DNA from: Naegleria gruberi | Taxonomy: Eukaryota | Assembly (NCBI GenBank): GCA_000004985.1 | Contig: GG738846.1 | Direction: 5' to 3' (one strand) | DNA length: 64,000 nt | In this document: positions 7,923 through 61,950 of the stretch, piece by piece | Layout: each line of letters opens with the position of its first letter | Position numbering within the stretch: the first letter of the stretch is position 1 | Position numbers and translations under genes: made by a program | The notes under the pieces: model-generated | Databases searched by the model: none | What the model was told of the DNA's origin: nothing | What the model saw: the letters and a program-made list of their open reading frames with translations, nothing else

Positions 7923-7983
7923 TATTTTGTTTTTTTTCTGTAAATAATATTGGACATTTAAATAATCAATGGTTGTCACAAGT

Positions 7984-14089: not shown

Positions 14090-14162
14090 TTTTTTGATAA
14101 AAAAATTTTAAAATAGAAATTTGGTTGAAGGGTAATCCCGCTAATTTCTATCTACAAAAAAA
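14090..14162. promoter_or_regulatory. About 73-bp divergent promoter region between SLU7 (minus) and LRR_cc gene (plus)
   Basis: Divergent start codons at 14089 (minus) and 14163 (plus) with an A/T-rich spacer. Confidence 0.3.
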
Positions 14163-25119: not shown

Positions 25120-28100
25120 ATGCCACCAAGAGAAGCAAGAGGAAATTCCAACCCATCATCTGGCTCTTCTCGATACCACAGATCATTTAAGAATACATCG
25201 GATAATACCGATGAACAACAACATAAACCTTCAAGAGGGAATTATAGAGGGGGATATAGAGGAAACTCTCGTTCAAATTCTTCTTCAAGAACAGAGGAAA
25301 CAAATGACACAAACACACAAAAATCGACTTCTCACAGAGGAGGACACAATACACAAAGAGGACCTTACATACCAAGAAATTCAGAGGATTTATCGGAAGG
25401 TTTACCTAAAACAAGAGTTAAGCCATACAAACCTGGTTTTATTAAAAAACAAAAATCCGAAACACTTCCCAATTTTCAAATAGTAGCAAGAAATGATGAA
25501 GATGAGGAAAGTTCACAAACATCAAATAGGACAAAAAAACAACCATTTAAAAAACCGAATCCAAAAGATTTAGTTTGGGAAAGATCTGCTGAAAGAGATG
25601 ATGAGCAGGCTCCAAAACCTCCAAAACAAACTTTTCAAAAACAACCATTTAAAAAACCGAACCCAAAAGATTTGGTTTGGGAAAGGCCTGCTGAAAGAGA
25701 TGATGAACAGATTCCAAAACAAAAATTAAAGAAACAACCATTTAAAAAACCGAATCCAAAAGATTTGGTTTGGGAAAGGCCTCCCGAAAAGGATAATCAA
25801 AGATTTAAAGAAGGAAAAAATCTACATTTACAAATTTTCAAATAGTAGCAAATAATGACGACAAGGACGAGGAGCAAAATACTCAAAAACCACATAGAAA
25901 GCAACCATTTCAAAAACCAAATCCAAAAGATTTAGTTTGGGAAAGGCCTGCTGAAAGAGATGATGAACAGATTCCAAAACAAACTTTCCAAAAACAACCA
26001 TTTAAAAAACCGAATCCTAAAGATTTGGTTTGGGAAAGACCTGTAGATAAGGATGAGCCAACTCTAACAAATAGAATTGCAAAAAAACAACCATTTAAAA
26101 AACCAAATCCAAAAGATTTAGTTTGGGAAAGGCCTGCTGAGAGAGACGATGAGCAGGCTCCAAAACAAACTTTTCAAAAACAACCATTTAAAAAACCGAA
26201 TCCAAAAGATTTGGTTTGGGAAAGGCCTGCTGAAAGAGATGATGAAGAATCCGAACACTCTCATACACCATCTGGAATTCACAAATATTTAGATGATTTA
26301 TCACATGGCCCAAATATATTTACCCTACCACAAGGATTTTCTGGATTTGGCTCTTACAGAGATTCTAATTTACCAGATAATAATTTATTCGAAATTTCTA
26401 AACCAAAAATTGTAAATATCAACGAGGATGAAGAGGATAATATAATCAAATCTGACGAGAAAGGGGTATTATTTGAGGATGAAGAACAAGACGAAGAGTA
26501 TTATGTAGAAAAAGACCAAACAGACAATGAGCAAGATGAAGAGGATAATCATGACGAGGAAGATCAAGAAGAAGACTATAATAATTTTGTTATTGAAAGA
26601 AAATCTTCCTCATCGTATGATGAAAACGACAGTGAAAGACAAATCCTAACAATTCCCCCTAAAACACATGAAAAGAATGAAAAGGACATTATCTACTCGA
26701 AACTGAAAACTATGGAATCAAAGACAAAAATTTGGGAAAAAAGCTATCCAATCAAGGCTAACTCAATTATTGGTACATGTCAGGACAAATGCCCAAAACA
26801 AGAGATTACCAACAGAGAAAAGGATAACGATCTCAGTTTATTTGAAAAGACAGGAAAGATCATTATAGACGAGCATGGTATTAAGATGTACAAAGCAGAT
26901 CCTAATGCTTGCGTGAAAAAGTATGCCAGATCTGCTGCAGCCGTTCATGCTGATCCTTCACTAATTCGTCCTCCTCTAATACTCAAGAAAACATTGGAAT
27001 ATTTGACCCATAATATTTTAGAACGTAAAGAAGAGTATCATACTATATATTTTTTTATTAGAGACAGAGCTAGAAGTATTATCCAAGACCTAACAATACA
27101 AGACATCAGAGATGAACGAAGTGTAGACTTACATGAAATAATTTCAAGGTTTCACATAATGAGTCATCACTTACTAGCAGATGTAGGAGAAGAATTATCA
27201 GATCCTCATCAAAATCTTGAATTAATGAGCAAATGGCTTAAAAGCTTACAGGAGCTCTATTTTGAATTAAGATCTAATGGAATTGAATGTCCAAATGAGT
27301 CAGAGTTCACTGCTTACTATATACTTGTAAAGATTACTTCAGATCAAGAAGTTGCCAAGTGTTTGAGAAACCTTCCTTCCAAAGTCAGCAAGTCTCCAGA
27401 GGTATTGTTCGCCCTTAAGGTTTACGGAGCATTTTCTACTAAAAATTATGTACGATATTTTGAATTGGTCAAGCAAGCAAGTTACCTAAGTGCATGTCTA
27501 ATGCACATGTATTTTGCACATATCAGAGAAGAAGCTCTCAGAATTATGAATACAGCATTTAATATTAAGGTCACTGATATTTCCAAGGCTGGTAGATATC
27601 CAATATCTAAACTCGTAGATATTTTGGCATTTGAAACTAAAGGAGAGTGCACAGATTTTTGCAAAGCCCACGGTATTTATATTGACGGGGATGATGTATT
27701 ATTCAAATACTCCACGTTCGTAACACCTGACAAGAAAATCAAATCAAAGAGGTCATTGAGGTTGATTGAATCAAAGGTTGCTGGCATTAGATACTCTGAT
27801 CTTGTAAATTTAAATTTTCGGATAGCTCCAGAACCTTCCAAAACACCGCCGAAAGAATTAGAAACTAAAATCAATGAGTCACCTCAGAAAATCGAGATAA
27901 TCAATCCACCAACTCAAGTGCAAATAGTTCCTCCAGCTTCCCAACCAAAACCACCAACACCTGCTCTTATTCAGAGTGCTATTCCAAAGGAAGTAATAAG
28001 AGAACCTGAAACAAAAATACCATTGGTAACTCAGCAACCACCATCTAGGTATGATGTTCCACATGTCAATCCACCCTCCACTTTTGTTCCACCCAAACCA

Positions 28101-30176
28101 ACTACACAAGAAAATAGACCAATCTTTCCTCCAATTGTTTTTAGTCCTTCCCAGATGCCACCTTTTAACATAATCAAGTCACCAAATCCTCCAATTCCAC
28201 CTACTCTAATTCAACCACAACCACCTGTAGCTTTTAAAACTCAATCACATAGAAACGAAATTTCTATTGATCCCTTGATTCCTCAAATCCCAGTCTCCCC
28301 AATTAAACCCCTAGGTCCGACTGAGGAGGAAACCAAAAAAGAACTGAAAAGCAAATATTTTTCATTATTGAAGAAATATGCAGAAAGGAAAAAGAGAATT
28401 CGTGCAAGTAGGAAACAACACATCAGCAATGCAATGGACTTTGTACTCCAAGAAAATATTATGTCAGATGATTATGAAGAAGATCAATCAATGTGCAAAT
28501 ATTACAAACACATATTCAAGAAGAGATATCTCAGCCAATTATACCAACCTCTTGACTTGGCTTCTCTTATCTTTAATTCACCTGTTACTGACAAGATTGA
28601 TACATTTTTCAGCTTTTTTTGGAAACTAATGATAGTACCAGGAACAAACAGCACTCATCTTAATGAATGGATTGCGGCAAAATTTTCTCGCCCAAATAGT
28701 GATGACTATTTGTGTAATTTTATAGTAAACGGTAAGGACGTGGATTCCCTACCAAGACCCAAGAAAAACACAGAACTACATATTTGTGCACGAACCCCCA
28801 AAGACTCAAGGTCATGGAGAGGTACTTCCTCAATAATTTTCATATTGGATAATCCCAACAATACCGATTTACAGACATATTTCTCACTAGAAAAAAAGAG
28901 GTTACACCAACATTTTTCAAATTTAGGCTTATTTAATGATACTCATATCCCTATTCTAATTCTCTTTGATAAGAGCTGGTTTCACAATAGCAGTGAAAAT
29001 ATGCTAAAGGAGCATTTCCTTCACATTATCTATGAAGATTTTAAATGCTTTTCAAATGTGGAATATGTAGGCATTAATTTTACTCACCTACTAAACTTTC
29101 CCTCATCAGAAGAAATTGCTATTTTAAATCAAGTTTTAGAAAATTACACCTTGTGGCTTGCAAATAACTCCTCCGATCCACCTCTTCTCCACACATATTC
29201 TATTAGAGATTTGATAGAAGAAACAACTTTTTCACACATTCGAAAATTGTTGATCGATATTGATCCAAATGCTAGAAATGGTATAACTGTTAAGGATTTG
29301 ATACTTGTATACAATGATGTGTGTGAATCGCTATCCCATCAGACTATTTCAGAGACTGAAAGAATGAGAAAACTAAATTGGCCAGCTCCAGAGTTTGAAA
29401 AGTATTGCGATTGGAACACAGATGAAAATGCAATACTTCAAAAAGAGCTTTTAGGTCAATTATCATTACCAACCATTGATCTAACTCTCTACAACTCTAA
29501 ACATATTGTTGACAATTTGTATAGCTCATGTAAGCAGTATGTGACAACCCTGTATACAAAACGTAAGATTTATCATCCAGCCATTTCCAGTCAATCCATC
29601 AAGCAGTTGGTTAAGGAACTTGTTAACGGTGGTGGATATGCTGCTAGTATCAAAATCTTTGAAATGTTCATTGAGATACATTTAACCTTGCTCTTTGATA
29701 AGGATCCACTTTATAGTTTTGTTTTCACCACAGCAGAATTCAAAAGTATTGCCAATTCAGTTTTGGAGAGGCTCAGATATAGCTCAAACCCATTCATCGA
29801 ATCGTCATTAAGGGCTTCGTATGGGTTAAAAATGTCTCTCAATTCAGACAAGACTAATTTTGAGACTTTTAGAAATCTTAAACGTATTATCAAAGAATCC
29901 ACTCAAGAAAAAAACCAAGATTGTAAGAAGAGAAAACTTGTTACCTATATTGATATTAATCAATGTATAGGGATGCACACCCAATTATCAAACAAAATTA
30001 GTGAGCAAAGAAGTCTATTTTCTCATCTCGAATCAGCCCCATCCGATCTTAGTTACCACTCTATTGTAGATACAGATATGAGTGACACAGTATCCACCAG
30101 TGACAGTTGTCAGTCCTGCATTGATTCCCTCAAATTACTACAAGAAAAACTTGAAATGTATAGAAAGGGTATTTAA
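25120..30176 (+). CDS. SAC3/GANP-domain protein (mRNA export / TREX-2 scaffold family) with N-terminal tandem-repeat region; frame discontinuity near 25806..25845
   Basis: SAC3/GANP homology CQDKCPKQEITNREKDNDLSLFEKTGKIIIDEHGIKMYKADPNACVKKYARSAA...IRPPLILKKTLEYLTHNIL...YHTIYFFIRDRARSIIQDLTIQD. Long proline-rich and C-terminal regions. ORFs 25120..25845 and 26025..30176 carry the same repeat family in different frames. Confidence 0.6.
25490..26245 (+). repeat. Coding tandem repeat: about 87-bp (29-aa) units KKQPFKKPNPKDLVWERPAERDDEQ[AI]PKQTFQ, at least 7 copies, embedded in an about 370-bp higher-order duplication
   Basis: Repeated DNA motif aaacaaccatttaaaaaaccgaatccaaaagatttggtttgggaaaggcctgctgaaagagatgatgaacag seen at about 25540, 25650, 25740, 25905, 25990, 26085, 26180. 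Flanking NFQIVARNDEDEE (25470) vs FQIVANNDDKDEE (25835) shows the larger unit duplication. Confidence 0.85.
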
Positions 30177-31420: not shown

Positions 31421-31530
31421 ATTGCTGTTAATGAAATGTTGTATTTTTTTTAACAATGTGTAACGTTTCGATTCTAGAAATATTGAGCGGTTAAGGAACA
31501 TTTGGCGGGAAAAATAAAAATTTTACTTGC

Positions 31531-33178: not shown

Positions 33179-33526
33179 TTAATCCTCTTCTTGTTCTACA
33201 GAGGTGTCCATATTAGAGTATTGGGCAGTGAAAAGATCTGGATTCTCTCTAAACGCCTTTGCCCTACTGTCCATGATGCTAATTTGTTTAGAGTACATTT
33301 GATTGATGAGTGATTGTCTTTGGACAATTCCCAAATTCTTTATTCCCTTCTCATATAATTGTTTAATCTTTTCCTTGTCAGTGATTGTTTTGTTCTTTTT
33401 AAAATCTTCTCTTGTACACCTTAGAGTATATTCTCTAAAGTTATAATCGGAGAACTGTTTACCACCTTTTAATAGTCCTTTGTAGAGGGAGAGAATTTGT
33501 GATTTTGGTATTATTGATGAAGACAT
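33179..33526 (-). CDS. LYRM4: LYR-motif protein ISD11/LYRM4 (Fe-S cluster assembly, NFS1 partner) with C-terminal extension, 115 aa
   Basis: ILSLYKGLLKGGKQFSDYNFREYTLRCTREDFKKNKTITDKEKIKQLYEKGIKNLGIVQRQSLINQMY aligns with human LYRM4 ([68 protein letters not shown]). Confidence 0.9.
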   Translation of the reverse strand: MSSSIIPKSQILSLYKGLLKGGKQFSDYNFREYTLRCTREDFKKNKTITDKEKIKQLYEKGIKNLGIVQRQSLINQMYSKQISIMDSRAKAFRENPDLFTAQYSNMDTSVEQEED

Positions 33527-33730: not shown

Positions 33731-36700
33731 ATGTCTTCTATTGATGTTGTGGGATGTCAACTTGGAGTAGTTACCAATACTCTTATCCGTATTGCAATAT
33801 TTCCCATCGGTAAAATTAATGCCTCAACATTTAAAAAGTTTGTATCAATGATACAAGCTTGTGATTCAAAGCCGATCAAAAGTTTGACCAGATTCAGAGA
33901 TGATAATTTAAAAAGTCCTTTTCAAAAGCAGGATTGGTCTCGATCTGTTTTAAAATTTCAATTTGTTGACGAAACAAGTATTAATACAGGATATTCGGAT
34001 TTCCATCAATATAGAAACGTTCACGGAGTGATTGGTATTATGAGTTGCTTGAGTGAGGAATCTGTTGCTAGTGGATTTACAAAATACAAAAAGCAAAAAT
34101 TACAACTATACGGAAAGAATATTGTGGGAAGATGCTTTGCAGTAGAGCAAGATCCTGAAACAATGGCTCCTGAGGATGAAGAATTGGTGGTAATTCCTAA
34201 TCAAGATGAAAATCATGTTGGATGTCATATTGATTATTTATTTTCTGATTTGGCAAGACAAATACTGATCAGATTTGAAAAAATTGTTTCAAATCCTTCT
34301 GCCTATTTCAATGAATTATCAAATACGTATTTAATGACCTCTCCATCTGGTCTTTTCCCAACAAGTAATAATAGTAGTAATAATACCAAAAAGCCAGCAA
34401 CCCCAGCCAAAACAAAAGTTGATACACAAACCATTCCCACTTCACAATCGTCAACCAATCTTTCCCTTGGAGATGAGAAAAATTTACAAAACATGAAATT
34501 ATTTGCAGATTCCTCTCTTTTAATTTGCGATTATGAGGATGCCATGACTACCTATCAAGAAATTAGTAACATTTGTAAGATGCAATTGAACAATACTACA
34601 AGTGCAGCTATCAACTACCCTTTATATCAGGCTGGTGCAGCCGAAGGTATGGCTTCCATCATTTTTGTAAAGTCAAGACTTGCACAAAAGTCTGAGGTTG
34701 ATAGCTCCATAGTTCAACAAATCTATGATTTGATTCAAGAATCTATTCAATTTTATGAAAAATCTAAAAAGAAAGATCTTTTAGTGGAAACCTACATTAA
34801 AATGGCTGTATTCATCTCAGGGTATTGCGAAAAAAAGAAGAGAAAGGAAGCACTAGACTGTCTAACAAAGGCTGTTCAATCTGCTGATTCTTTAACAACT
34901 CAAGAGAAGGTATGTTTAAATTTTTAGAATCCAATAATTCATATTAATGAAATAATAACAGATTGTTGTTTCTGGGTTTGCAGCCAAAATTTGCAAGCAA
35001 ATGAAATGTAAAAGAAAGTTTGGATTTTTCTTGAGACAAGTAGCAGTTCTTCATCATGAATTGTGCAACCAAGGTGTTTCAATTAGATTGGGATCCCAAT
35101 TTATGGATGCTTATAACATTCCAATTGAGCTAACATCACGTACAGGTTAGTATTACAATATTCCAATTAATTGTGCTATATTGTACTTTGTTATTGTCTT
35201 TATTAATATAGAATGGAAAACAAAAAAGAATTTTTCACTCAAAGGATGGCATTTTATTCAAATGGATGTTATCAAAAGCATGATTGATTTTGCACAATCA
35301 ATGAGTCCAGCTGATTATTGCACAGAAATTCAATTTAGATTTTATCTCTTATCAGAGTATGGACAAATTATGTCTAAAACAACTCAAGAGGAACATTTGA
35401 AGCGTATATTATCTGTTTCTCACCAAATACCTAAAGGCATAAATATTCTGTTAAAGCCTCTTCCAATCATCAAAATGGTTGCTCCTCAAAAATTACCTTC
35501 ACACTTGGAACCAAAGTCACTGGAAATCAAAGATAACAGACCTCAATTGTTTATTTATTCTCCATTTGACAAGAAGGATGAAAGATTGGTAACTTTAAAT
35601 TGGGCAAAAAATGAAACTGCACAAACACTAGTTGAATTTTACAATCCATACAAGATTGATTTACGCTTAAAGAATGTATCGGTAAAGTACAAACCTGAGA
35701 TTTCTCCAATTAATGAAAGTGGAGAACCTATTTGTGACGTATTTGTTCACTCAGCTGTGGTTGCGAGTGGGCAATCTCAAAAGGTTTTTGTAGCAACTAA
35801 ACCTAGAGCAGTTGGAAGTATTATTCTTGATTCAATTGGAATAGAATTTGAAGAAGGTAGATTTAAATCACCAGTCTATCTTCCAATAACAACCCAACAC
35901 CTCGTAAATGAAAAAAAAGAAAGGAGAGACTATGATATCACCGTTGTAGAGACTGTTCCACTTCTTAATGTAACTCTTTCAACACCTCAACTATCTCTTG
36001 TTGATGGAGAAACAACTACACTCTTTGCAAAGCTTCATAACACTGGTAATTGTGAGATTACCTTCCTTGAAATTACATTTAACAATCAAACAGCAAACAC
36101 TGTTTCAATTAAGGACGAAATTATCAAAAAGTATCTTCCGCTTGTTCCAGATGCTGATGTTGTAACAATTCCAATTGAAGTAGTTGGAGTATGGAAAGGA
36201 TCAAGTGATCTAGGTATTATTAATATTCATATCAAATATGGTATTGAAAAACAAGATCCTAATGAAAAATCTTATTATAGAGAGATGGACCTTTCCATTA
36301 AAACAACAGTAATGAGGGCTGTTGCTGTTGAAGATTGTATAACAGTTAACGAATCATTCAATAAGAAGATTGTGGCTAAAATTCACAACTATTCCAATTC
36401 TTCCTTTATGTTATTGTCTAGCCTCTCCCAACATTTAAAGGATGAGCAATTTGATACAGGAATACCTTTTGGTGCTCAGTCTACCAAAATGATTCTTGTT
36501 GATCCTTCCATTCTTCATGATATCAATTTTGAAGATTTGAATATTCCATACACATCAGATATCAATAGATATAAGGGAACAATAGCAAATGCAATGAGAT
36601 GGAAATCTGTAAGTAATTATTCTAATATATCATAATAGTTAATCATTCATAGTATGTCAACACGATTGGTATTGTTGGTTGTAAGAAAGAGAGTGAAGAA

Positions 36701-37201
36701 GTAAAACAAAATAGCCAATCAAAAGAAAGAGTACATTCCAGAAAACAAACCATCATTTCTGCACCTCCCATTATGAATGAATTCTTGAATATTAAACAAG
36801 AAATGATTGCCAATGTAAATAATCAAATTATAGGCCACAAAGAACTGGCTATTCAACAAGTTCCTGTACAATTAGGCATTAGCGAACAAGTAGAGTTCAC
36901 AATTAATGTAACACTTAGCTCAGTTAATAATCAACAAATTTTAAATAAGATTGCAAGTTTAATTTTAAGAGTTTATCAAGATGGAGAAAATGGTACAAGA
37001 ATACCTGCAACAAACCGACAATTTTGTTATTCTGGTAGATTGAATACTTGTTTGGAATTGACGTCATCGAGTCCTTCCCAAATAACTCTAAAACTTTTCT
37101 TTTTAGAAAAGGGGACATTTAAATTATCAGTTCTTTGTAATGATGAACAAACTCAAGATATGCTTACCTCTCCAATAGAGGCAGTTCTTGTAATTAAATA
37201 A
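33731..37201 (+). CDS. TRAPPC9: TRAPP II-specific subunit TRAPPC9/Trs120, 4 exons: 33731..34909, 34960..35145, 35212..36608, 36653..37201 (introns 50, 66 and 44 nt)
   Basis: N-terminus DWSRSVLKFQFVDETS...HQYRNVHGVIGIMSCLSE...KLQLYGKNIVGRCFAVEQD parallels TRAPPC9 ([21 protein letters not shown]...[20 protein letters not shown]). Exon 2 RKFGFFLRQVAVLHHEL ~ RKSAFFKRVAAMQCV. Exon 3 LKGWHFIQMDVIKSMIDFAQS ~ HRGWAAVQMRLLHELVYAS, and ERLVTLNWAKNETAQTLVEFYNPYKIDLRLKNV ~ [31 protein letters not shown]. Confidence 0.8.
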
Positions 37202-37290
37202 ATTGTGGAGTATTGAATTATTATTTAACTCGATAGATAATATCACCCAACCGTATTGTATTTAATTGCTTGGTTACCACTTCAAAAAAA

Positions 37291-37860
37291 ATGAGTTCAA
37301 ATCAACCTGTTGACGAAAGAAGAGAAAAGATTAAATCCCTCATCAGAACTGTTCCAGACTACCCTCAAAAGGGTATCATGTTCAGAGATATCAGTACATT
37401 GTTGGCTGACTCTGAAGGATTGGCTCTTGTTGCTGATTTATTTTATGAACAATACAAGGATAAAAAGATTGATGCCGTTATCGGTATTGAAGCCAGAGGT
37501 TTCATTTTAGGATCCTTGTTGGCCTATAAAATTGGAGCTGGTTTTGTTATGATTAGAAAGGAAGGAAAGATGCCAGTCGGTTCTGGTGTTACAGTACTGA
37601 AGGAATCATATCAAATGGAATATAGAAGTGCTACCACTATTGAAATGCACTCCGATTCTCTCAAAGCAGGACAACGTGTTGTTATTATTGATGACTTGTT
37701 GGCAACTGGTGGTACTTTGTTGGCTAGTATTAAACTTGTTGAAAGACTTGGAGCCGAAGTTGTTGAATTGGCTTGTATTGTTGAATTGCCAGCTCTTGGT
37801 GGTAGATCCAAACTCGCTGCTTATCCACTCTATCATATGGTTGAATTTGAAGGAGATTAA
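37291..37860 (+). CDS. APRT: Adenine phosphoribosyltransferase (APRT), single exon
   Basis: DYPQKGIMFRDISTLLADSEG, VIGIEARGFILGSLLAYKIGAGFVMIRKEGKMP, PRPP motif VVIIDDLLATGGTLLASIKLVERLGAEVVE. ATG MSSNQ at 37291 (the ORF track's upstream M at 37270 is less likely). Confidence 0.9.
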   Translation: MSSNQPVDERREKIKSLIRTVPDYPQKGIMFRDISTLLADSEGLALVADLFYEQYKDKKIDAVIGIEARGFILGSLLAYKIGAGFVMIRKEGKMPVGSGVTVLKESYQMEYRSATTIEMHSDSLKAGQRVVIIDDLLATGGTLLASIKLVERLGAEVVELACIVELPALGGRSKLAAYPLYHMVEFEGD

Positions 37861-37952
37861 ATGCTTGTATTATTAATAATTGCAATTAAATAATTTTCAA
37901 ATCTATCCAACAAAAAGGAGTGAAAAATCTAACATCTAATTACTTTAAAAAA

Positions 37953-40566
37953 ATGGAAGATTCACTCCAAACCAATGAGTCCCCAAGTTCCGTCACTGCA
38001 AAACAAAGGAACATTCCATTGATCATTCCAAAAGGTTTAAATGTTGATGACAAAACTCTCTTTCGTAAGAAGAGTGTTACTTTTAATTCACCGTCATCAA
38101 CAGGGCAATCATCTCCTCCTCCTTCAATAGTAATTACAAAAACAACAACTGATAACAGTGTACCAGTGATAGATATTCAAGAGGAAGAGCCAACAAGTAA
38201 ATATTATCAGATGGAGGAAGATGAAACTCCTAGAAGCATTTTGACTTCATCGGAAATCAAATCAAGAAGAAACAGTATCAAGTCATCCCGTAGAAAGTCA
38301 ATAAAACAACAACCACCCAAACTTAAGCACGCAATGATGACATGGTTCAGAACCCAAAAAGAATCATTGAAACAAAAAGCAAAATCTGCCACTCCAGAAG
38401 CAATGTTAACAACAGGTCCTATTGTTAAATTGTTTAAATATGGAAAGTAAGTTCTCATTTGTAATAATATTTGTTTAATATTAAATGATTATATCTTGAT
38501 CAATACTAGAATTCCATGGAAGTTACTCATACAGTGTCTTCTTTTAATTTTAATAACTACTAAGGTTGTTTTATTATCAGAAAAAAGAAATAACTATTTC
38601 ATTAATAATGACATTACCTTTGCAACATCCTTTTTGAAGGATGGATTTGAGAATTATGAGGCAAATGTTGATGGCTTTTTTAGTAGCTACTTTTATTCTA
38701 CTGATGATGTAATTGCAGATATCAGCAATACTGTTTCTTCTGTAAGTATTCATAAATTATAAGATGACAATCAATACTATTCATAATGTAGTATTATTTA
38801 TTTCCTAGAAAGAATGTTGATGTTTGGGTATTTCCAAGAGACCTTTCAAGAGGAGATCTTATCAGTCCTGTTGAGGCAAAGCTCTCCCTCTTTACGGAAA
38901 GCCCAAGGGACTTTATTTTAAATGGTTCTGATACGACGTTTAGTCGTGAACCTCTAATAGAGGGTATGTAAAAAAATTCCCATTTCAACTAACGTGAGAA
39001 GAATCTGATTTATTGACTCTTGATAAGCCTTTAGGATCAGTATTGGAAGGGTATTTTGCTAATAATTCAAGATCATTATTTGATAGACTTGACAAACTTA
39101 CTCTAAAATTTAGTATTATTGGTTTGGATAGAAGTAATTATGTTGTGAATGGGTTTGCAGAATGTGTATTTTGGACTATTACCAAGACATACAGAAACAA
39201 TGAAGGTGGTAAACTTACTTCTTTTATTCTAAGAGATTATGACATTTGCAATAGAACAGACAGAAAAGCAGTCATGGAATTTTACAAACCATCCATATGG
39301 GTTTCCTTAGTAATATCTTTTGCAAGTGCTCTTGCTCTTGCTCTAGACGTTAAGTCTGTGATTTTTAGACTCAGAATGTTCAAAAAGATAAGAGATCTTG
39401 AAACACTAAAGCATGTTGGTCAGGTGTAAGTTTTTAAAAACAAATTTTATATACTATTTGATAATAGTATACCAATCAACTCTGATGACAATTTTATCAA
39501 GCAAAAAATCAAGAGAATCATTTATCATAGATATAAGAATATTTGCTTAGCCGATTTACCTGGTGTTCTATCGTACTGGTTCATTTTCTCCTTTTCACAA
39601 CACATGACAAACATGTTCTCATTCATTTTTGAATTGCTTACTCCAGGTAATATACAAATTAATAGCTTTTTCATTGGTATGAGTTGTATGCTTACATATT
39701 CAAGTACTATGAGATTTTTCCAATTTCACAATGAATTTTACATGTTCAGTAAAGCATTTGAGAGAGGTTTACCCCAAGTGATTAGATTTATTATTACAAC
39801 ATTACCTCTATATATTGGATTTGGTGTTTTGGGAACCGTGATGGTATGTATTCTTAATTTCATAAGTTTATTAATTCATCTCTAGTTTGGTGAATATTCT
39901 AGATATTTCTTAGATTTGAATGAATCACTGGTAACTCTATTTTCCCTAATTTTCCAAGACAACATGCACGATACTTTTGACAGTGTTTTTGGTAACAAGA
40001 CATTTACGGCATACTTTTCCAGACTTTACATTTATGTTTATACAGCTATTTTTATTTGTGTAATAGCCAACGTTTTTACCAGTATCATGGAAGATGCCTT
40101 CTTCTCGTTGAAAGAAAATCAAGAAAATCTTAATAATCAGGTTCAAGAGGAAGAAAAGAAAAATACCACCACTTCCACTTCAGTTCCTAACAATAATGAG
40201 GATGATAGCGATTACGATACAGAATCTAATGTGTCCGTTATGGATGTATCTCTAGCAGACATAACTGATGAAGAAGAAATTTATTGGAATCAAGCTATTG
40301 AAAGAGAGCAAAAGAAGGAAAATAATCTCGTTGAAACAAAGAACAAATACTTCCCAAATGAACCAAAAAGTTTGAGTTATATTCTAGACGAGGAAAGTAT
40401 TGAGGATAACATTGATCGTATTCTTTTTATTGTAAAGGAAGCTTGTAATGGTAAGGTACTAACGGAAGAACAACAATCTCTGTTGGAAGAAATTGAAAGA
40501 AATGCCCAATCTGTCTATTCAAATAGAACATTTGTAGAACTTGATGAAGTTAATAAAGAAGAATAA
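37953..40566 (+). CDS. TRPML/mucolipin-like cation channel (polycystin-mucolipin family), about 7 exons between 37953 and 40566
   Basis: Long cytosolic N-terminus (MEDSLQTNESPSS...). TM1 and luminal loop (WKLLIQCLLLILITTKVVLL; polycystin-mucolipin-type loop NGFAECVFWTITKTYRNNEGGKLTSFILRDYDICNRTDRK). Pore/S6 LIFQDNMHDTFDSVFGNKTFTAYFSRLYIYVYTAIFICVIANVFTSIMEDAF resembles TRPML1 (NGDDMFVTF...LSLFIALITDTY). Acidic C-tail. Exon boundaries inferred from ORF blocks 37920..38450, 38496..38762, about 38806..38967, 39013..39429, about 39470..39590, 39604..39850 and 39916..40566, not individually verified. Confidence 0.6.
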
Positions 40567-40596
40567 GGAAAAGAATAAAAAATTACACAATTAAAA

Positions 40597-43385
40597 ATGA
40601 AGCAACTTGTTAAATGTAGGAAGCCGTTCTTTTCCTACCCTAACAAACACAATATCAAAGCAGCAACTCTTCAGCCATCCTGTAGAGTATTCGGAAGGAG
40701 AACAAAAACAATTAACATAATAGATAATCTCCCTTCTGAAAAAAATAAATGGATAAATACTAGACATTTACTTGTAAAGGACCATCTCATCGGAAAACCA
40801 ACTCTACTGATCAATATTAATTATTTCCCCTCTGTATTGAATTATTTGATGAGTTTGGAGTAAGTGGACTTTGAAATTCGAATTCTAATACTGGATAGTT
40901 TTACATTGGAAAACAGAGCAAATATTATTGGATTTGGAGGCGATTTGCAGAGTATTGATACTCTTCGTGATTATGTTCTCTACCACGAATTTCCATACCC
41001 TGTATTCAAGACAGATTCTTGTGATTTCATACTGCAATTATTAGACCAAGAGGGAAATTTATTCTCAACATATTACGATGAAATGGAAATATTTGAGAGG
41101 CTGGTTAGAGGTAATTATTGAAATGAATTTAAATTATTAATATGATTAATAGATACTGATGATATTATTGAGAAGTCAATTCACATTCAGATGAAGGAGT
41201 TTGAATGGCAGAGATTGGACAAACCAATTGAACGGTTACTTCAACCTCAAACTCTCTTTCAGTATCCAACTTTTTTGGAGAAAGCAGACAAACATTTATT
41301 TATTTCGGATACGTTTCATAATAGAATAGTAAAGATGAAACCTGATGGACATGTGGAATATGTTGTAAGTTAAAAAATTCCATTTATTTACAATTTAAAA
41401 CAGTTTGGTGATGGCTTTGCTGGACTTAAGGATGGAATATTTTCTGATTGTAAATTTTATAGACCTCAAGGTCTATTTCATGACATTCAACAAAATCAAA
41501 TAATTGTGGCTGATACTAATAATAATACAATTAGAAGAATCAATCTCAATGAAAATTTTGTTTCAACCCTTATTCAAAACAACTTGGGACAAGGTACTGA
41601 TTTGGAAAGTTATCTTCTTAGAGATGACACTACACGAATTATGCTCACAGAAGAATATATTGAAAAACAATTTATTTTCGAAAGAGAAAAAGAATGGTTA
41701 AAGAATACTCCTAAACCACTAACTGTTGATTTTACTGCATGCTCCAAAGCCATAAGCAAACCTGTAGACCTTTTTATCAATTATGATGAAAATTGCTTAT
41801 ATGTTGCAGAAACGGGATATAGACATATATGGAAAATAAGGTTGGAAAATGGACTTGTTGAGGATGTATTACCAATAATGATACACAAATATTTGAGAAA
41901 TGATTTCAGCAAATACATCTCTCAGGTATTTCCCTCACTAGAACTTAACAGTAGAGCTAACCAATCTCGGAAGAATTTATTTGCGGAATTTAGCTTTTTA
42001 AAGCATAGATCTTCAATTCAACAAAACAAAACCCCCTCCTTCCATTATATCATTGAGAGCCCAACCGCTCTTTATCGACCACATTCAGATAATGAATACA
42101 AATTCAGACAAATTAAGGTGACACCCTCTTCAACTCTCACATCCACAACAATCGGTAATGATGGTATAATAGAATCTGTAGCTTGTAAAACTATTTTTAC
42201 TTCTACAGGAATTGGATTCAAAAATGGTTCAATCGTCGGAAAAGAAAAACCAGAGTTTAATCACCCTATTTCAATCGTAAAGATTGAAAATGATCTGTTC
42301 ATTTCTGATTCTTGTAAGTAAATTGTTAAAGTATGAATATATTTTAACTCTATACAGTCAACCATGGAATGAGGAAATTAAGTACGATTAGTGGACAAGT
42401 TGAAACTGTACAACCAAGCAATCTAAGGGAGTTTGGTGTAGTAGCATCTGAAAACCATCCAAACATACTTGAAGATGGAAATTTAGATGAAAATAATAGA
42501 TGTGGAAGGTTAATTAGAGCTGAAAAGATGAACTTTGTGAGTGGTAGCTGTCTTATCAAACTTTGCTTGAAAGCACCTAAAAATTTCAAATTTATTGAAA
42601 AAATCTCATCCCAAAACATAGACATCAAGTTTAAAAATAATGGTAGTTTTACAAGTCAACACACCGCATATGTTCACAATAGGGAATTATTTAATCCTGA
42701 ATCGTTCTCTATTTCTGATGATTCTGATTGGAAAAGTATAAAGAGAAAAAACAGAGGGTATAACTCTCTGCCAGAATTAGTAGAAGCCTCTAAAGATGAT
42801 GAAATGCTACTTAATATTCCATTCGAATTAGCAGAGAAAGTCTCTAAGAATGAAAATTTAGAACTGGACATTACATTTACAACATTTATTGGAAGCTCTC
42901 TTGCAAGTTCAATTCATACAAAACCTTTTACACTTCAAGAAGATCTAAACACTGTCTCATATATTCCATTTAATTTACAAACATGTAAATTGGATCAGTT
43001 ACTTAATTTTAGAGAAATTCCAGAATTGGAAGTATCTGATAGAAAAGAAATAAGACACAAAGTATCACAACTTTTAGAATGGGACCTACAAGAAAGTATC
43101 ACACCTCCTTTCTTGAGAGAGAATGTTTTAGCAAATATACACAATATACCTGAAAATGAAGAAATGAGGCACGAGGTAATAGAATGCAATGACTCTTCAC
43201 AAGTTTTTATTGATTGTGTAACTTTAAGAATTCCAATCCAACTTGTTGAAGATTCAAAAATGTCTACAGAAAAGAAGCGCAAACTTTTGGTTCACACTTT
43301 AACTATTCCTGTTTCTCCTTCCCCTCCTCTATTTAAGCAAAACCATCACAAGCATCAATATGTAGCTACAACAAGTAATATTTAA
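40597..43385 (+). CDS. NHLRC2: NHL repeat-containing protein 2 (NHLRC2) orthologue: degenerate thioredoxin-like N-domain + NHL beta-propeller + C-terminal beta domain; multi-exon (first intron 40860..40898, 39 nt)
   Basis: NRANIIGFGGDLQSIDTLRDYVLYHEFPYPVFKTD ~ [76 protein letters not shown] ~ [82 protein letters not shown] ~ [40 protein letters not shown]. The CxxC of the thioredoxin fold appears lost (LLININYFPSVLNYLMSL). ORF blocks 40597..40863, 40864..41121, 41191..41373, 41506..42321, 42369..43385. Confidence 0.8.
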
Positions 43386-44476: not shown

Positions 44477-44524
44477 TTTTTCAAAGTGAAACTAGTACAG
44501 TATTTTTAACGGCTAGTATTTATT

Positions 44525-45220
44525 TTGTATGAACAAGGCAGACAAAGCGCCAAAAAAATGTATGGAAATCAACCAAGGGAAGAAAGAGTAAAGACACCAC
44601 TTCCCGAGAAGTTGAAAAATTCTTTTTCTTTCGCTAATCAGAATCAAGAAGAGCAATTAAATGAGGATGAATTGGAACAAGTTATGGACAATGGAAACTA
44701 TTTGGAGAGGGCTAATTTAGATCTCTTCAATCAACCAGTTGAGGAGGTAGAGCAATTTGTAGTGCAAGATGTTGTTCCGACAAATTCAATGCCTTCATAC
44801 AATAGAAATAAATTAAGGGATGAAATGATGGAAAACAATCAAGAGGAATCTGCTGAACCACCTGTAGAGGAAACCAAAAAAAAGAGAAAGAAAAGGAAAC
44901 CCAAAAAAACTGATGACGAATGGAACGAAGAAGGAAACAAACATGAATCAAATTTACCCACACTCCACGAAAAAGAACAAGAAGAAAACACTACAGATGT
45001 TTTACAACCAAAAAAGGAGGTAATTAGGACTCTGGAGAAGGATCTGTTTGCTGACATGGCAAGAACTCATTACCTCTCTATTTCACCAAATGATATCATT
45101 GTTGGAAAGGAAAATGAGGAAGCAGAAGAAGTGACAGATGAACCAATTGAATCAAAGAATTTAAAAGTTGGAGGACCTCTCTCTCTTAGACAGAAAACTA
45201 TTTTCATTGAAAGTATGTAG
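44525..45220 (+). CDS. Acidic/basic intrinsically disordered protein ORF (231 aa); may be the N-terminal part of a gene continuing into the 4-TM exon at 45428..46000
   Basis: E/K/N-rich low complexity (EEVEQFVVQDVVPTNSMPSYNRNKLRDEMMENNQEESAEPPVEETKKKRKKRKPKK). Ends ...IFIESM* with GTATGT immediately at the ESM codons. The downstream exon is in the same reading frame. Confidence 0.4.
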   Translation: MYEQGRQSAKKMYGNQPREERVKTPLPEKLKNSFSFANQNQEEQLNEDELEQVMDNGNYLERANLDLFNQPVEEVEQFVVQDVVPTNSMPSYNRNKLRDEMMENNQEESAEPPVEETKKKRKKRKPKKTDDEWNEEGNKHESNLPTLHEKEQEENTTDVLQPKKEVIRTLEKDLFADMARTHYLSISPNDIIVGKENEEAEEVTDEPIESKNLKVGGPLSLRQKTIFIESM

Positions 45221-46074: not shown

Positions 46075-46284
46075 TTACAACTTTTCTTCTGGTTGTTGGG
46101 TTGGTAAAAGTCCGTACTTTCTCTTCAAGTCAATTCTATATTGAGAGTAGGTATCAGCTGGAGAGAAACGGGCTGGGTGAGCTGGACGAGTTGCAACTGG
46201 GTTCTTTTCACAAGTTGTGCTCTTATTGTCGCAGACGTATTTGATGGTGTATGTTTGACAAGCTTCACAGTATCTCAGTCTCAT
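46075..46284 (-). CDS. NOP10: H/ACA snoRNP subunit NOP10, 69 aa
   Basis: [64 protein letters not shown] carries the NOP10 signature (..[24 protein letters not shown]). The ATG of MRLRY is at 46284 (the ORF track's start lies 18 nt upstream). Confidence 0.85.
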
Positions 46285-47220: not shown

Positions 47221-47387
47221 TTTTTTATTATTACTAACTGTTAAAATTGGCGCCACATCTCTTCCGCCAAAATAAAACTCTTTTAAAAAAAAATTAAATA
47301 ATACTGGTTTCAATCACACAACGTCTTCATCATCACAATACATTTTATATATACAGGAACAATTGAGGATAATAATATTATTATTTA

Positions 47388-55610: not shown

Positions 55611-56342
55611 ATGGTTAGGTTTACAAATTTTAAATCTTCTCCACAAACAAAAGATTACCACAAGTATGAAATGAGTGGAATATTATTCAAGATGGGAGAA
55701 GTTAACAAATCATGGAAGGAAAGGTTTTTCATTCTGGAAGAGGACAAATTATTTTACTATAAAAATTCGGAAAGCTCCAAAGCTATTGCATACATACCTT
55801 TGAACGATGCATATGTTAGAGTATCTCCTGAATTTTATCCTAAACAAGCATGTTTTGAAATTGTCACATCACAAAGAATATACAAATTAATGGCTGCAAA
55901 TTTTGAATTGATGAAAACATGGATACATCACTGCCAGACATTTAGTAAAATAAGTATGGAAAATGAGCTGATACGACAAGCAGATATTCAAATTCATGAT
56001 GTTGAATCTGGACTAACAAAAAAAGCCTTGGAAGAATTACATTTCGAACCAATATCATTAGAAAATTTTTATTTTTCATGTAGATATAATAGAGAAGAAG
56101 ACTATTCAAATAGTTTGGAATTTGATTTAATAAGAGGATTGAATAATACATCGATAACGAACAGAATGAATAATGCAAGTAGTGTGGTACTATCAAATCA
56201 ACTATCTGACGATGAAGACTCTTTACAAATGGTTGATAAAAAGAATATTGACCTCTCAAAAAAACACTCTCCATCCATAGCCTCCCAAACACCTGCAACT
56301 GAAGAAAATCAAGAATTGATTGATAGGATTGGAACAGAATAA
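55611..56342 (+). CDS. PH-domain protein, 243 aa
   Basis: PH domain MSGILFKMGEVNKSWKERFFILEEDKLFYYKNSE...ACFEIVTSQRIYKLMAANFELMKTWIHHCQ. Rest low complexity. Confidence 0.6.
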   Translation: MVRFTNFKSSPQTKDYHKYEMSGILFKMGEVNKSWKERFFILEEDKLFYYKNSESSKAIAYIPLNDAYVRVSPEFYPKQACFEIVTSQRIYKLMAANFELMKTWIHHCQTFSKISMENELIRQADIQIHDVESGLTKKALEELHFEPISLENFYFSCRYNREEDYSNSLEFDLIRGLNNTSITNRMNNASSVVLSNQLSDDEDSLQMVDKKNIDLSKKHSPSIASQTPATEENQELIDRIGTE

Positions 56343-56389
56343 ATTATTGTTCCTTGTTCTTATTCCAATATTTTATTTAAATAAAAAAA

Positions 56390-57571
56390 ATGGTAAATGT
56401 AATAGTCAGAGGATCCCGAGCAGACGACATTGAAAATATTGATTTACTTGGACAACCAATGAAATCAATCACATCAGGTTTTGGCCATGTGTTAATATTA
56501 TCAGAGAATGAGAAATTATTTAGTTTTGGTCGTAACGATTGTGGTCAACTTGGTTTTGAATCGGAAAATCCTGATGAAGTTGATGTTTTGAAAATCACCC
56601 CCATACCTTGGAGCAATTCTATTAAATCAATTCATTGTGGTTCCTTGCACTCTATGATTTTAAGTGATGATAATTGTCTATTTTCTTGTGGTAGCAACGC
56701 ATTTGGGCAATGTAGTCAACCAACTCTCTCTGGCCCTATTATTGCTCAGTTTACCCTTATTGAAATAGATGAAATTGTACGGAATAAGATAGCTACAATA
56801 ATTTGTAAATTTGCACATAGTGGTTTCGTCACTTCCGATAGAGAGTTATATTGTTGCGGGAGGAATCATGATTTGGAAATTGGTATACAAAACAGTGATA
56901 ATGTAAACAAATTTACAAAAGTGCCAAATATTCCTCCTGTAAAGCTGGTAGATTTTGCTTGGAAATATACGGTTATTGTAACGATGGAAAATGAAATATA
57001 TTCCTCCAAGCATGGCATTCTGAGAACAGAATGTACACTTAACCCGTGCATTGGTAAATATTGTGGATGGAATCCTTCTATCAATGGAGAAATTGTCAAA
57101 CTCCAATGTGGAAATGAGCATACAATACTGCTTACACAAAATATGGAACTTTTTGGGTTTGGATATTCACCCAATGGAGAAATTGGAGTCTCTCAAAGTT
57201 CAATAATTAAGGAGGTTGTAAGAATCGGAGGATCCATCCTGGACAGAGTTTGTAACTTTGTTACATCATATAATCAATTAATTGTTTTTACAACTGGTGG
57301 AACCATTTATGTTTCTGGTCTAAACACTAGAGGGCAATTGAATTTCTCTCTAAATAATAACATGATAGATTCTAAAGATCCAGTGGAAACGCTCACACCT
57401 GTATCTCAATCCAGATATTTCAATTCAGCTTGTATTGGTAATCAATTTACCATATTATATCACAGAACAGAAGGGCAATTCAAAATTGAAAAATTATTCA
57501 AGCAACAATTATTTTCACTCGCCTTACATGAATACTTTTTTGATACGAGCATTGTCTTTTGTAAAGAGTAA
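56390..57571 (+). CDS. RCC1-repeat (regulator of chromosome condensation-like) beta-propeller protein, 393 aa
   Basis: Repeated RCC1 blades: GFGHVLILSENEKLFSFGRNDCGQLG, IHCGSLHSMILSDDNCLFSCGSNAFGQC, LQCGNEHTILLTQNMELFGFGYSPNGEIG. Confidence 0.65.
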   Translation: MVNVIVRGSRADDIENIDLLGQPMKSITSGFGHVLILSENEKLFSFGRNDCGQLGFESENPDEVDVLKITPIPWSNSIKSIHCGSLHSMILSDDNCLFSCGSNAFGQCSQPTLSGPIIAQFTLIEIDEIVRNKIATIICKFAHSGFVTSDRELYCCGRNHDLEIGIQNSDNVNKFTKVPNIPPVKLVDFAWKYTVIVTMENEIYSSKHGILRTECTLNPCIGKYCGWNPSINGEIVKLQCGNEHTILLTQNMELFGFGYSPNGEIGVSQSSIIKEVVRIGGSILDRVCNFVTSYNQLIVFTTGGTIYVSGLNTRGQLNFSLNNNMIDSKDPVETLTPVSQSRYFNSACIGNQFTILYHRTEGQFKIEKLFKQQLFSLALHEYFFDTSIVFCKE

Positions 57572-57955
57572 TTAATTGATTATTGTGTTGATTGATTGCA
57601 CGACGACATGCGTACAAATCGGGAAATGCAAACATCAACAATCACAACTTGTGTATTTTGTTTGTAGAATACAATCATCTCTTATTGCTTCAAGATGAAA
57701 ATAATTTGATATTCTCATCTAATTAATTCCTTTCATTAAATCTTGCTAAATAACATTCGTTGTGAAGTGATGGTTGTGTCCTTTAGGAAGGAAGTGAAAA
57801 GAGTACAAGATAAAAACTCATTTAAACTTTTATAAAAAAAATCAAAACCATTGCGATTTTTGATACACAGAGCGTGAGAGTTTTGACCGTTTTTACTGCA
57901 TATCATCAATCCTATTTTTCAAACCTTCTAATTGTACACTTATTAAAACTCTTCA

Positions 57956-60649: not shown

Positions 60650-60699
60650 TTTTTTGAAAAATATGTACAACTAATTTTAAATTAAAATTAGATTAAAAA
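60650..60699. promoter_or_regulatory. About 50-bp divergent (bidirectional) promoter region between GTF2H2 (minus) and MCAT (plus) start codons
   Basis: Only 50 nt (tttttgaaaaatatgtacaactaattttaaattaaaattagattaaaaa) separate the two divergent ATGs. Extremely AT-rich. Confidence 0.35.
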
Positions 60700-61887: not shown

Positions 61888-61950
61888 CTTGTTCTTTATT
61901 AAAAAACCATCACACAATGAAAAAATATTATTTAATTTTTAAAAAAAAAA

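Follow-up and report, generated by a model that had tools for sequence, protein, structure and literature searches.

Four pairs of neighbouring same-strand genes in the window, the 64,000-nucleotide stretch of DNA analysed here, are separated from stop codon to ATG by only 30, 37, 47 and 61 nt, and each of these genes is probably transcribed as a unit of its own, the separate mRNAs lying head-to-tail with hardly any untranslated sequence. Direct reading of the DNA bears out all four distances. Short same-strand spacing in the window is beyond chance, yet it is not peculiar to these four pairs; gaps of 30-60 nt are how genes are ordinarily packed in Naegleria gruberi, a free-living amoeba. With respect to the preliminary description of this DNA, the spacing and the start-codon calls stand and overlapping units are the favoured option, while the parts concerning poly(A) signals, operons, start-codon error and genome reduction find no support.

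The window is N. gruberi NEG-M nuclear DNA, an assignment made because seven of its open reading frames match N. gruberi GenBank proteins exactly (1,001,995-nt scaffold). Other contigs matching the window are likewise genomic DNA, with identity above 99.9%. The 34 gene models across the window are our own predictions from the sequence, and only some of them equal GenBank models. Modelled coding sequence amounts to 56,121 nt, about 88% of the span, and small spliceosomal introns of 35-66 nt are numerous in the genes. The spacing had been read as a hallmark of a highly reduced genome, a view that does not fit a free-living, gene-rich amoeboflagellate whose genome is compact instead of reduced; Fritz-Laylin et al. 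2010 reportedly put it at about 41 Mb with 15-16 thousand genes.

Four closely spaced same-strand gene pairs

Pfam families identify genes on both sides of the junctions, namely Peptidase_A22B, SANTA, RasGEF_N with RasGEF, PH, RCC1, PKD_channel (TRPML-like) and NHL. The genes and spacers are as follows.

1880-2905, plus strand: signal peptide peptidase (SPP) gene, stop TAA at 2903-2905; Pfam Peptidase_A22B, identical to GenBank EFC50012
2906-2942, plus strand: SPP to KNL2-like spacer, 37 nt; direct reading
2943-5123, plus strand: KNL2-like (SANTA domain) gene, single exon, 726 aa; Pfam SANTA, identical to GenBank EFC50013
7984-9584, minus strand: RasGEF gene, stop TAA at 7984-7986; Pfam RasGEF_N and RasGEF
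7923-7983, minus strand: RasGEF to coiled-coil spacer, 61 nt; direct reading
6403-7922, minus strand: coiled-coil gene, three exons, ATG at 7922; gene model
37953-40566, plus strand: TRPML-like (PKD_channel) gene, six exons, stop TAA at 40564-40566; gene model, spliced translation and Pfam, with no identical protein in databases
40567-40596, plus strand: TRPML-like stop to NHLRC2-like ATG (40597) spacer, 30 nt; direct reading
40597-43385, plus strand: NHLRC2-like gene, five exons (40597-40859, 40899-41110, 41153-41364, 41404-42313, 42358-43385); open spliced translation
55611-56342, plus strand: PH-domain gene, stop TAA at 56340-56342; Pfam PH
56343-56389, plus strand: PH to RCC1-like spacer, 47 nt; direct reading
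56390-57571, plus strand: RCC1-like gene, single exon, 393 aa; Pfam RCC1 families

These four gaps sit at the low end of a continuum. The 18 tandem gaps among the 34 gene models measure 30, 37, 47, 55, 61, 62, 62, 89, 92, 97, 101, 110, 113, 114, 124, 133, 139 and 384 nt (median 94.5), so that 17 values run continuously from 30 to 139 nt beside a single gap of 384 nt, and the shortest intercistronic spacers do not stand apart from the rest as a class. Pairs in the other orientations are as tight. Convergent gaps of -4, 5, 8, 44 and 69 nt occur in five of seven pairs, with the coding sequences overlapping by 4 nt in one case and lying only 5-8 nt apart in others, and three of eight divergent pairs have gaps of 50, 73 and 81 nt. 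This distribution fits general compaction, under which overlapping 3' ends would be unavoidable.

Poly(A) signals and predicted transcript ends

The spacers had been considered to leave no room for a poly(A) signal. This is refuted by three of the upstream genes, which carry AATAAA on the stop codon itself, at 2901-2906 for SPP (a dual-use stop codon and poly(A) signal), at 56338-56343 for the PH gene and at 7983-7988 on the minus strand for RasGEF, in each case with a hexamer offset of -5. The fourth, the TRPML-like gene, has AATAAA 7 nt past its stop (40574-40579, offset +7), and its 30-nt spacer also holds ATTAAA at 40590-40595 (offset +23) and an A-rich tract just before the next ATG. Across the window, AATAAA lies on the stop in the -5 register in 9 of 34 genes, where chance would give 4.5% (binomial P = 1.4e-5); it overlaps the stop in any register in 12 of 34. 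Conversely, the modelled coding sequence contains only 10 sense-strand copies of AATAAA, compared with about 107 expected from base composition. This tenfold depletion suggests that the signal is efficiently recognized.

The signals in the flagged spacers match what has been described by nanopore direct RNA sequencing of N. gruberi (PMC11529991, Genome Res 2024). In that study AAUAAA is a strong and sufficient signal located about 15-20 nt upstream of cleavage, it overlaps 11-13% of stop codons genome-wide, and the median 3' UTR is 39 nt, or 22 nt where the stop is dual-use; the consequences of such short 3' UTRs for the start or promoter of the next gene are not addressed there. Given a poly(A) signal that shares letters with the stop codon (gAATAAAt) or follows it within a few nucleotides, each upstream mRNA would end soon past its stop, with cleavage about 20 nt beyond it. 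The predicted 3' ends leave about 15 nt before the KNL2-like ATG, about 25 nt before the RCC1-like ATG and about 39 nt before the coiled-coil ATG. Because of the published signal-to-cleavage distance (PMC11529991), the TRPML-like cleavage site is predicted to fall at about the NHLRC2-like ATG, leaving room of about 0 nt, and an overlap of a few nucleotides between these mRNAs is probable. The downstream gene would open with a short A-rich leader (aaaaaaATG), so that its core promoter and regulatory elements would have to lie partly within the preceding gene, in its 3' UTR and final codons. For these genes the exact poly(A) sites, the transcription start sites, the short 5' leaders and the embedded promoters are all predicted positions, and their geometry implies that neighbouring transcripts would overlap. 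Among overlapping transcription units, polycistronic transcripts and mis-assigned starts, the three options originally put forward, the first is favoured here.

A variant in which 3' ends are leaky is unlikely, and it can coexist with separate mRNAs. Here the genes would have their own promoters, termination would be inefficient, and read-through multi-gene by-products, of which the first ORF alone is translated, would be common. Such read-through transcripts have been described for microsporidia and nucleomorphs. The coincidence of the predicted TRPML-like cleavage site with the next ATG speaks for leakiness, as do the convergent coding sequences that overlap or lie 5-8 nt apart, whose transcripts must therefore enter their neighbours, and the 62-nt spacer of one tandem pair (10546-12410 to 9698-10483), from which AATAAA and ATTAAA are absent. 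That last pair also counts against the favoured model. Against it stand the purging of AATAAA from coding sequence and the strength and sufficiency of AAUAAA in N. gruberi, and the direct RNA study makes no mention of read-through (PMC11529991).

Start codons and promoter-like elements

An alternative, under which the downstream genes begin further along, at another in-frame ATG or in another exon, and the real spacers are longer, is highly improbable, and mis-assigned starts are disfavoured for all four downstream genes by orthologue alignment, GenBank identity and the lack of a credible alternative ATG. Exon 1 of the NHLRC2-like gene has a low absolute coding score (-5.3 nats), and the exon 1 region is missing from the GenBank model of the N. 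fowleri orthologue. Nevertheless, within a protein that is 42-44% identical to those of N. lovaniensis and N. fowleri, exon 1 (KWINTR...GKPTLLININYF) aligns with the N-terminus of the N. lovaniensis orthologue, and its sole further in-frame ATG is codon 85, beyond the conserved block. For the RCC1-like gene, an in-frame ATG at codon 24 would lengthen the gap to 116 nt, but alignment with the N. lovaniensis orthologue begins at residue 2 and takes in residues 2-23. GenBank models are absent in N. gruberi for two of the four downstream genes, whereas the KNL2-like gene equals an independent GenBank model; its next in-frame ATG is codon 77, and its codons 1-76 score best of six frames in the annotated one. 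Coiled-coil exon 1 has a strong in-frame coding score and no second in-frame ATG. In every N-terminal segment scored, the annotated frame outscores the other five.

An A-run precedes all four downstream ATGs and none of the alternatives. Among 33 starts scored, A occupies positions -1 to -4 in 25-30 and positions -5 and -6 in 20-21, and of 30 ATGs across the window that have six or more A residues in -7 to -1, 13 are gene starts; the gene finder had a mild A-rich start prior, which makes this statistic slightly circular. The A-run could serve as translational context instead of a promoter or leader feature. The spacers also contain promoter-like elements. In the SPP/KNL2-like spacer an E2F-like CCGCCAAA at 2932-2939 stands before an A-run that leads up to the ATG. 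A scan of the window for the E2F-like motif TTTSSCGS, which had been seen by eye beforehand so that its statistics are post hoc, gives six matches, five of them in the intergenic 6.9% of the sequence. They lie upstream of the KNL2-like gene, a NEK-like kinase, the GINS subunit PSF3 and the gene at 44558, the last in a divergent spacer common to an SH3 gene. A literature search turned up neither 5' UTR nor promoter data published on N. gruberi, nor any mapped transcription start site in Naegleria.

Gene order and polycistronic transcription

The same-strand spacing was also described as operon-like, a reading that finds no support here and is barely credible. True operons would yield one precursor. 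Spliced-leader trans-splicing, known from Euglenozoa, nematodes and Oikopleura, would free the downstream cistron, or re-initiation on a bicistronic mRNA would allow its translation. Gaps of 30-61 nt are indeed similar to those between the cistrons of known operons. Nor does the upstream gene's own AAUAAA alone rule operons out, as C. elegans operon genes carry their own. Naegleria moreover belongs to Discoba, the supergroup that includes the polycistronic Euglenozoa (10.64898/2026.07.29.740908). The convergent (-4, 5, 8, 44 nt) and divergent (50, 73, 81 nt) gaps are nevertheless equally tight, a fact that operons are unable to explain, and the continuum of tandem gaps contains no distinct short class. 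Neighbours share a strand in 18 of 33 pairs, with run lengths of 1, 2, 6, 2, 2, 1, 3, 4, 1, 1, 2, 1, 1, 4, 1 and 2 genes. The mean of 2.1 is as under random orientation, the longest run is 6, and long same-strand clusters, sought among the 34 models, are not found. This agrees with a preprint on 59 Discoba species, in which Heterolobosea have about two genes per directon (same-strand run), a ratio of inter- to intra-directon spacers of about 1 and no polycistronic architecture (10.64898/2026.07.29.740908).

Individual junctions give mixed indications. Three of the four spacers contain acceptor-like AG dinucleotides, but the PH/RCC1-like spacer, in which a T-rich stretch and then tttaaataaaaaaa precede the ATG at 56390, contains none and therefore lacks a trans-splice acceptor. 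The adjacency of the PH and RCC1 genes is kept in N. lovaniensis with a gap of 122 nt, which favours operons and fits co-regulation weakly. That of TRPML and NHLRC2 is kept in neither N. lovaniensis nor N. fowleri, where NHLRC2 is preceded, at a distance of 312 nt or more, by a longin/synaptobrevin gene. The E2F-like element within the KNL2 spacer also speaks against a shared transcript, and polycistrons, like read-through, go unmentioned in the N. gruberi direct RNA study (PMC11529991). An Rfam search finds no spliced-leader RNA in the window, and such genes would lie elsewhere. The portions of the literature retrieved by a search on Naegleria with spliced leader or trans-splicing contain no report of trans-splicing in Naegleria, which in some of them appears only as a comparison species. 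Most doubtful of all is that some of the tightest tandem pairs, the TRPML-like and NHLRC2-like genes with their 30-nt spacer being one example, share a precursor, the downstream mRNA arising by 3' cleavage of the upstream message with re-capping or trans-splicing, or being read by re-initiation; if true, it would represent, in an incipient state, the polycistronic system of their Discoba relatives, the Euglenozoa.

Comparison with known systems

The favoured arrangement of separate, head-to-tail mRNAs resembles several known systems in part. Like spliced-leader operons of Euglenozoa, C. elegans and Oikopleura, the window has same-strand genes tens of nucleotides apart that keep the upstream AAUAAA. 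Unlike them, it has neither long same-strand clusters nor a separate short-spacer class, one spacer lacks AG, spacers contain promoter-like elements, and Heterolobosea have no known spliced leader.

Microsporidia (Encephalitozoon) and nucleomorphs likewise have spacers below the size of conventional UTRs plus promoter, convergent genes that abut or overlap, and transcripts expected to start or stop inside neighbouring genes; overlapping transcription is reportedly a feature of these compacted eukaryotic genomes (Williams et al. 2005 PNAS). Naegleria differs in being free-living and gene-rich, with many 35-66 nt spliceosomal introns and a clear AAUAAA, and it is not known to form multi-gene transcripts.

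Giardia, Trichomonas and Entamoeba have short-leader, AT-rich initiator promoters. Genes of the window similarly carry an A/T-rich tract directly upstream of the ATG (tttaaaaaaATG), which suggests that transcription starts a few to a few tens of nucleotides before the start codon; the difference is that the Naegleria A-run may be translational context only.

Finally, dual-use stop codons have been described in N. gruberi itself and in Giardia (PMC11529991), the latter with the signal WGURAA in place of AAUAAA. Their frequency in the window, 26-35% in our own models, differs from the 11-13% genome-wide of that study. Organism and signal are otherwise the same, with AATAAA overlapping the stop in three of the four flagged genes and in 9-12 of the 34 genes of the window, and with AATAAA strongly depleted in its coding sequence.

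Four same-strand junctions

The preliminary description of this DNA reported four same-strand neighbours lying only 30-60 nt apart, and direct reading of each junction bears these spacings out. The gene names given there were likewise confirmed by Pfam, the TRPML-like gene being a PKD_channel gene, SPP a signal peptide peptidase, the KNL2-like gene a SANTA-domain gene and the PH gene a PH-domain gene.

Junctions read base by base, with the AATAAA hexamer of each upstream gene
TRPML-like to NHLRC2-like: TAA 40564-40566, ATG 40597, gap 30 nt; AATAAA 40574-40579, 7 nt past the stop
SPP to KNL2-like: TAA 2903-2905, ATG 2943, gap 37 nt; gAATAAAt 2901-2906, overlapping the TAA
PH to RCC1-like: TAA 56340-56342, ATG 56390, gap 47 nt; AATAAA 56338-56343, overlapping the TAA
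RasGEF to coiled-coil gene, minus strand: TAA 7984-7986, ATG 7922, gap 61 nt; AATAAA 7983-7988, overlapping the TAA

Gene models

The window (GC about 33%, ORFs dense on both strands) contains seven ORFs that are identical, letter for letter, to GenBank proteins of N. gruberi NEG-M, all on one scaffold of 1,001,995 nt. These include the following.

Signal peptide peptidase, EFC50012
SANTA-domain protein, EFC50013
Adenine phosphoribosyltransferase, EFC50018
SLU7, EFC50244
SH3 protein, EFC50250

These exact matches, together with the relatives of the NHLRC2-like protein (42-44% identity in N. lovaniensis and N. fowleri), show that the window comes from the nuclear genome of an amoeboflagellate, a free-living heterolobosean. 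Given these N. gruberi matches, the earlier appeal to a hallmark of highly reduced genomes is misplaced, as the DNA comes from neither a reduced parasite nor a nucleomorph.

Genes were modelled using a gene finder written for the window, which combines a frame-periodic Markov coding score with splice-site matrices from 27 confident introns (35-66 nt, GTAAGT or GTATGT donors, weak acceptors) and has a small bonus for A-rich starts built in. An initial pass that fused neighbours via bogus introns of 100-300 nt was discarded, and the TRAPPC9/APRT and SAC3/GANP models and the NHLRC2-like, WDR90, 53722 and 53961 starts were corrected by hand. The resulting 34 genes extend from 513 to 63901, with coding coverage of about 88% of the span in an earlier 35-gene version. 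Some genes are rich in introns, the TRPML-like gene having five and the NHLRC2-like gene four. Scanning for Rfam families and tRNAs gave no matches anywhere in the window.

GenBank protein searches found no N. gruberi entry for the NHLRC2-like (40597-43385) or RCC1-like (56390-57571) gene, and the same searches gave the N. lovaniensis and N. fowleri orthologues plus an ENA metagenome ORF. Both are likely unannotated genes; our guess is that tight packing perhaps defeated the original gene finder. Two small minus-strand genes, 46075-46284 (69 aa) and 33179-33526 (115 aa), have gene-finder scores of about zero and look real. By eye, we take the first to encode a NOP10-like product and the second an LYR-motif protein. 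The first is not in the database as modelled, and the second is in GenBank only as a "predicted protein" (EFC50249).

In the SAC3/GANP gene (25120-30176), N-terminal repeats (KQPFKKPNPKDLVWERP...) run on across a reading-frame change near 25770-25870, and no short intron in the 25700-25900 region is convincing; the change could be an assembly frameshift inside a repeat, an intron of atypical form or a real split into two ORFs. Contigs of the ENA "metagenome" assembly ERZ929261 (run ERR1078381, PRJEB11402) are >99.9% identical to the N. gruberi scaffold, introns included; L001, L005 and L006 cover window positions 36308-39579, 56079-59093 and 60182-63882, differing at 8 positions over about 10 kb. 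N. gruberi, or a strain nearly identical to it, was therefore present in the sample, and contigs so close to the window are uninformative on the conservation of spacer bases.

Gene spacing and orientation

Across the 34 models, the four flagged gaps are the low tail of a continuum and form no distinct class, and convergent and divergent pairs, which cannot be operons, are equally tight.

Gaps between neighbouring genes (nt)
Tandem, n=18, median 94.5: 30, 37, 47, 55, 61, 62, 62, 89, 92, 97, 101, 110, 113, 114, 124, 133, 139, 384
Convergent, n=7, median 44: -4, 5, 8, 44, 69, 227, 303
Divergent, n=8, median 221: 50, 73, 81, 204, 238, 339, 390, 509

With a mean same-strand run of 2.1 genes and the same orientation in 18 of 33 neighbour pairs, the genes are arranged as expected for random orientation. 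The smallest tandem gap (30 nt) far exceeds the tightest convergent gaps (-4 to 8 nt), a difference that fits a constraint in which the signal-to-cleavage distance needs room before the next ATG only in same-direction pairs, and which, at 18 versus 7 pairs, is suggestive only.

Among the convergent pairs, the NHLRC2-like and SH3 stops occupy one common TTAA palindrome (43382-43385), WDR90 and glutaminase lie 5 nt apart (21284/21290), and SAC3 and the NEK-like gene 8 nt apart (30176/30185). The 3' UTRs of such abutting genes must run antisense into the neighbour's coding sequence. Divergent ATGs are separated by as little as 50 nt (TFIIH Ssl1/acyltransferase, 60650-60699), 73 nt (SLU7/LRR protein, 14090-14162) and 81 nt (SH3 and the gene starting at 44558, 44477-44557). 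These tight spacers carry an A-run at each ATG in a near-symmetric catttttttg...caaaaaaaatg layout and are presumably minimal bidirectional promoters.

Polyadenylation signals

The preliminary description assumed that these spacers leave no room for a poly(A) signal. The hexamer, however, overlaps the stop codon itself in three of the four upstream genes, and follows the TRPML-like stop by 7 nt. In the register seen in SPP, PH and RasGEF, AATAAA overlaps 9 of the window's 34 stops against 4.5% expected (P = 1.4e-5); in any register the count is 12 of 34. Within 56 kb of coding sequence, sense-strand AATAAA occurs 10 times versus about 107 expected from base composition, a roughly tenfold depletion consistent with selection against premature polyadenylation.

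Nanopore direct RNA sequencing gives a median 3' UTR of 39 nt in N. gruberi, where 11-13% of stop codons are dual-use, that is, overlapped by AAUAAA, with a median 3' UTR of 22 nt; the signal lies about 15-20 nt before the cleavage site, and its recognition is aided by UGUA upstream and U-rich downstream elements (PMC11529991). The T-rich run directly after the hexamer in the PH-to-RCC1 spacer resembles the latter.

Predicted layout of the transcription units

If dual-use stops at the junctions behave likewise, 22-nt 3' UTRs would end the SPP, PH and RasGEF mRNAs near 2927, 56364 and 7962, leaving about 15, 25 and 39 nt, respectively, before the next ATG. Cleavage of the TRPML-like transcript 15-20 nt past 40579 would fall at about 40595-40600, on the NHLRC2-like ATG, and the two transcripts would then overlap by a few nucleotides unless the NHLRC2-like leader is nearly absent. 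In all four pairs the downstream core promoter would overlap the upstream 3' UTR and last codons.

Several spacers also contain E2F-like elements.

E2F-like matches in spacers
2932-2939, CCGCCAAA, 4-11 nt before the KNL2-like ATG and about 27 nt past the SPP stop
31501-31512, TTTGGCGGGAAA, two overlapping matches, 81-85 nt before the NEK-like kinase gene
44547-44554, 11 nt before the gene starting at 44558, in its divergent spacer with the SH3 gene
47264-47271, 44 nt before the GINS subunit PSF3 gene

Over both strands of the window, the consensus TTTSSCGS matches six times, roughly as often as chance would predict, and five of the six matches lie in the intergenic 6.9% of the sequence, an enrichment whose significance is overstated as the motif was spotted by eye before this post hoc test. 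Three of the downstream genes are classic cell-cycle genes, and the E2F, DP and pRb families are reported from across eukaryotes, Excavata included (PMC4862756). These matches suggest that the KNL2-like gene, at least, has its own putative regulatory element within the 37-nt spacer.

Of the three options in the preliminary description, overlapping or abutting transcription units is the most likely; polycistronic or trans-spliced transcripts and mis-assigned starts are improbable. Occasional read-through transcripts, which occur in microsporidia, are a plausible by-product compatible with separate, abutting units.

Operons and trans-splicing

A true polycistronic mechanism would also account for short same-strand gaps, and a poly(A) signal on the upstream gene does not by itself speak against one, as upstream genes of nematode operons carry AAUAAA too. 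The genomic evidence nevertheless makes such a mechanism very improbable. Gene orientation is random, gap sizes are continuous, convergent and divergent pairs are just as tight, every flagged upstream gene has a stop-linked poly(A) signal, the PH-to-RCC1 spacer lacks any AG, and the SPP-to-KNL2-like spacer holds a promoter-like element.

Nor is the tightest pair conserved. Both N. lovaniensis and N. fowleri have a longin/synaptobrevin gene, at a distance of at least 312 nt, in place of TRPML upstream of their NHLRC2-like orthologues. The PH/RCC1 pairing is kept in N. lovaniensis with a gap of 122 nt, and the convergent SH3 neighbour of the NHLRC2-like gene is kept at 4-6 nt in both relatives. 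No report of Naegleria trans-splicing appeared among the papers that a full-text search brought up, and those read mention Naegleria only as a comparison species or in a citation.

Start codons

Mis-assigned starts would widen the gaps; orthologue alignments, an independent gene model, missing alternative ATGs, upstream A-runs and coding frame all oppose this option. The five-exon NHLRC2-like model translates without stops, and its exon 1 aligns with the N. lovaniensis orthologue over the N-terminal region (NLPSEKNKWINTRHLLVKDHLIGKPTLLININYF vs SLPIESHKWFNTRTIVNAEQLKGRPTIFLNVDDF). An in-frame TAA at 40576-40578 makes 40597 the earliest possible start in frame, and the sole other in-frame ATG of exon 1 is codon 85, beyond the conserved block. 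The RCC1-like alignment with its N. lovaniensis orthologue begins at residue 2, which argues against the ATG at codon 24. The KNL2-like model is identical to an independent GenBank model, and its following in-frame ATG is codon 77; a homologue search returned the query itself as sole match, low-complexity words having probably filled the candidate list. Exon 1 of the coiled-coil gene has no other in-frame ATG.

The annotated frame has the best coding score of all six in every N-terminal segment, the absolute score being weak in NHLRC2-like exon 1. An A-run precedes all four downstream ATGs, as at starts across the window, where A occupies positions -1 to -4 in 25-30 of 33 predicted starts scored. 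Gene starts make up 13 of the 30 window ATGs with at least six A in -7 to -1, a slightly circular figure given the A-rich start bonus. A single spliced TRPML-like/NHLRC2-like gene was rejected, as the N. lovaniensis orthologue begins with an N-terminus of its own and lies next to another upstream gene.

Discussion

The window offers a concrete view of how scant promoter room is in N. gruberi, the E2F-like site before the KNL2-like gene being one example, and adds annotation value through two genes apparently absent from the GenBank set (NHLRC2-like and RCC1-like). Literature searches turned up no data for Naegleria on 5' UTRs, transcription start sites or the statistics of intergenic spacers.

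Compact packing and ultrashort 3' UTRs with stop-embedded AAUAAA are already published for N. gruberi, and the novelty here is low since the spacing follows from these described features. The stop-overlapping AATAAA of the window agrees with the direct-RNA study (PMC11529991). Across 59 Discoba species, Heterolobosea have about two genes per directon (a same-strand gene run) and an inter/intra-directon spacer ratio of about 1, with no heavy tail of long directons, unlike Euglenozoa (preprint 10.64898/2026.07.29.740908). Whether promoters sit inside upstream genes in Naegleria bears on how polycistronic transcription could have evolved in the related Euglenozoa.
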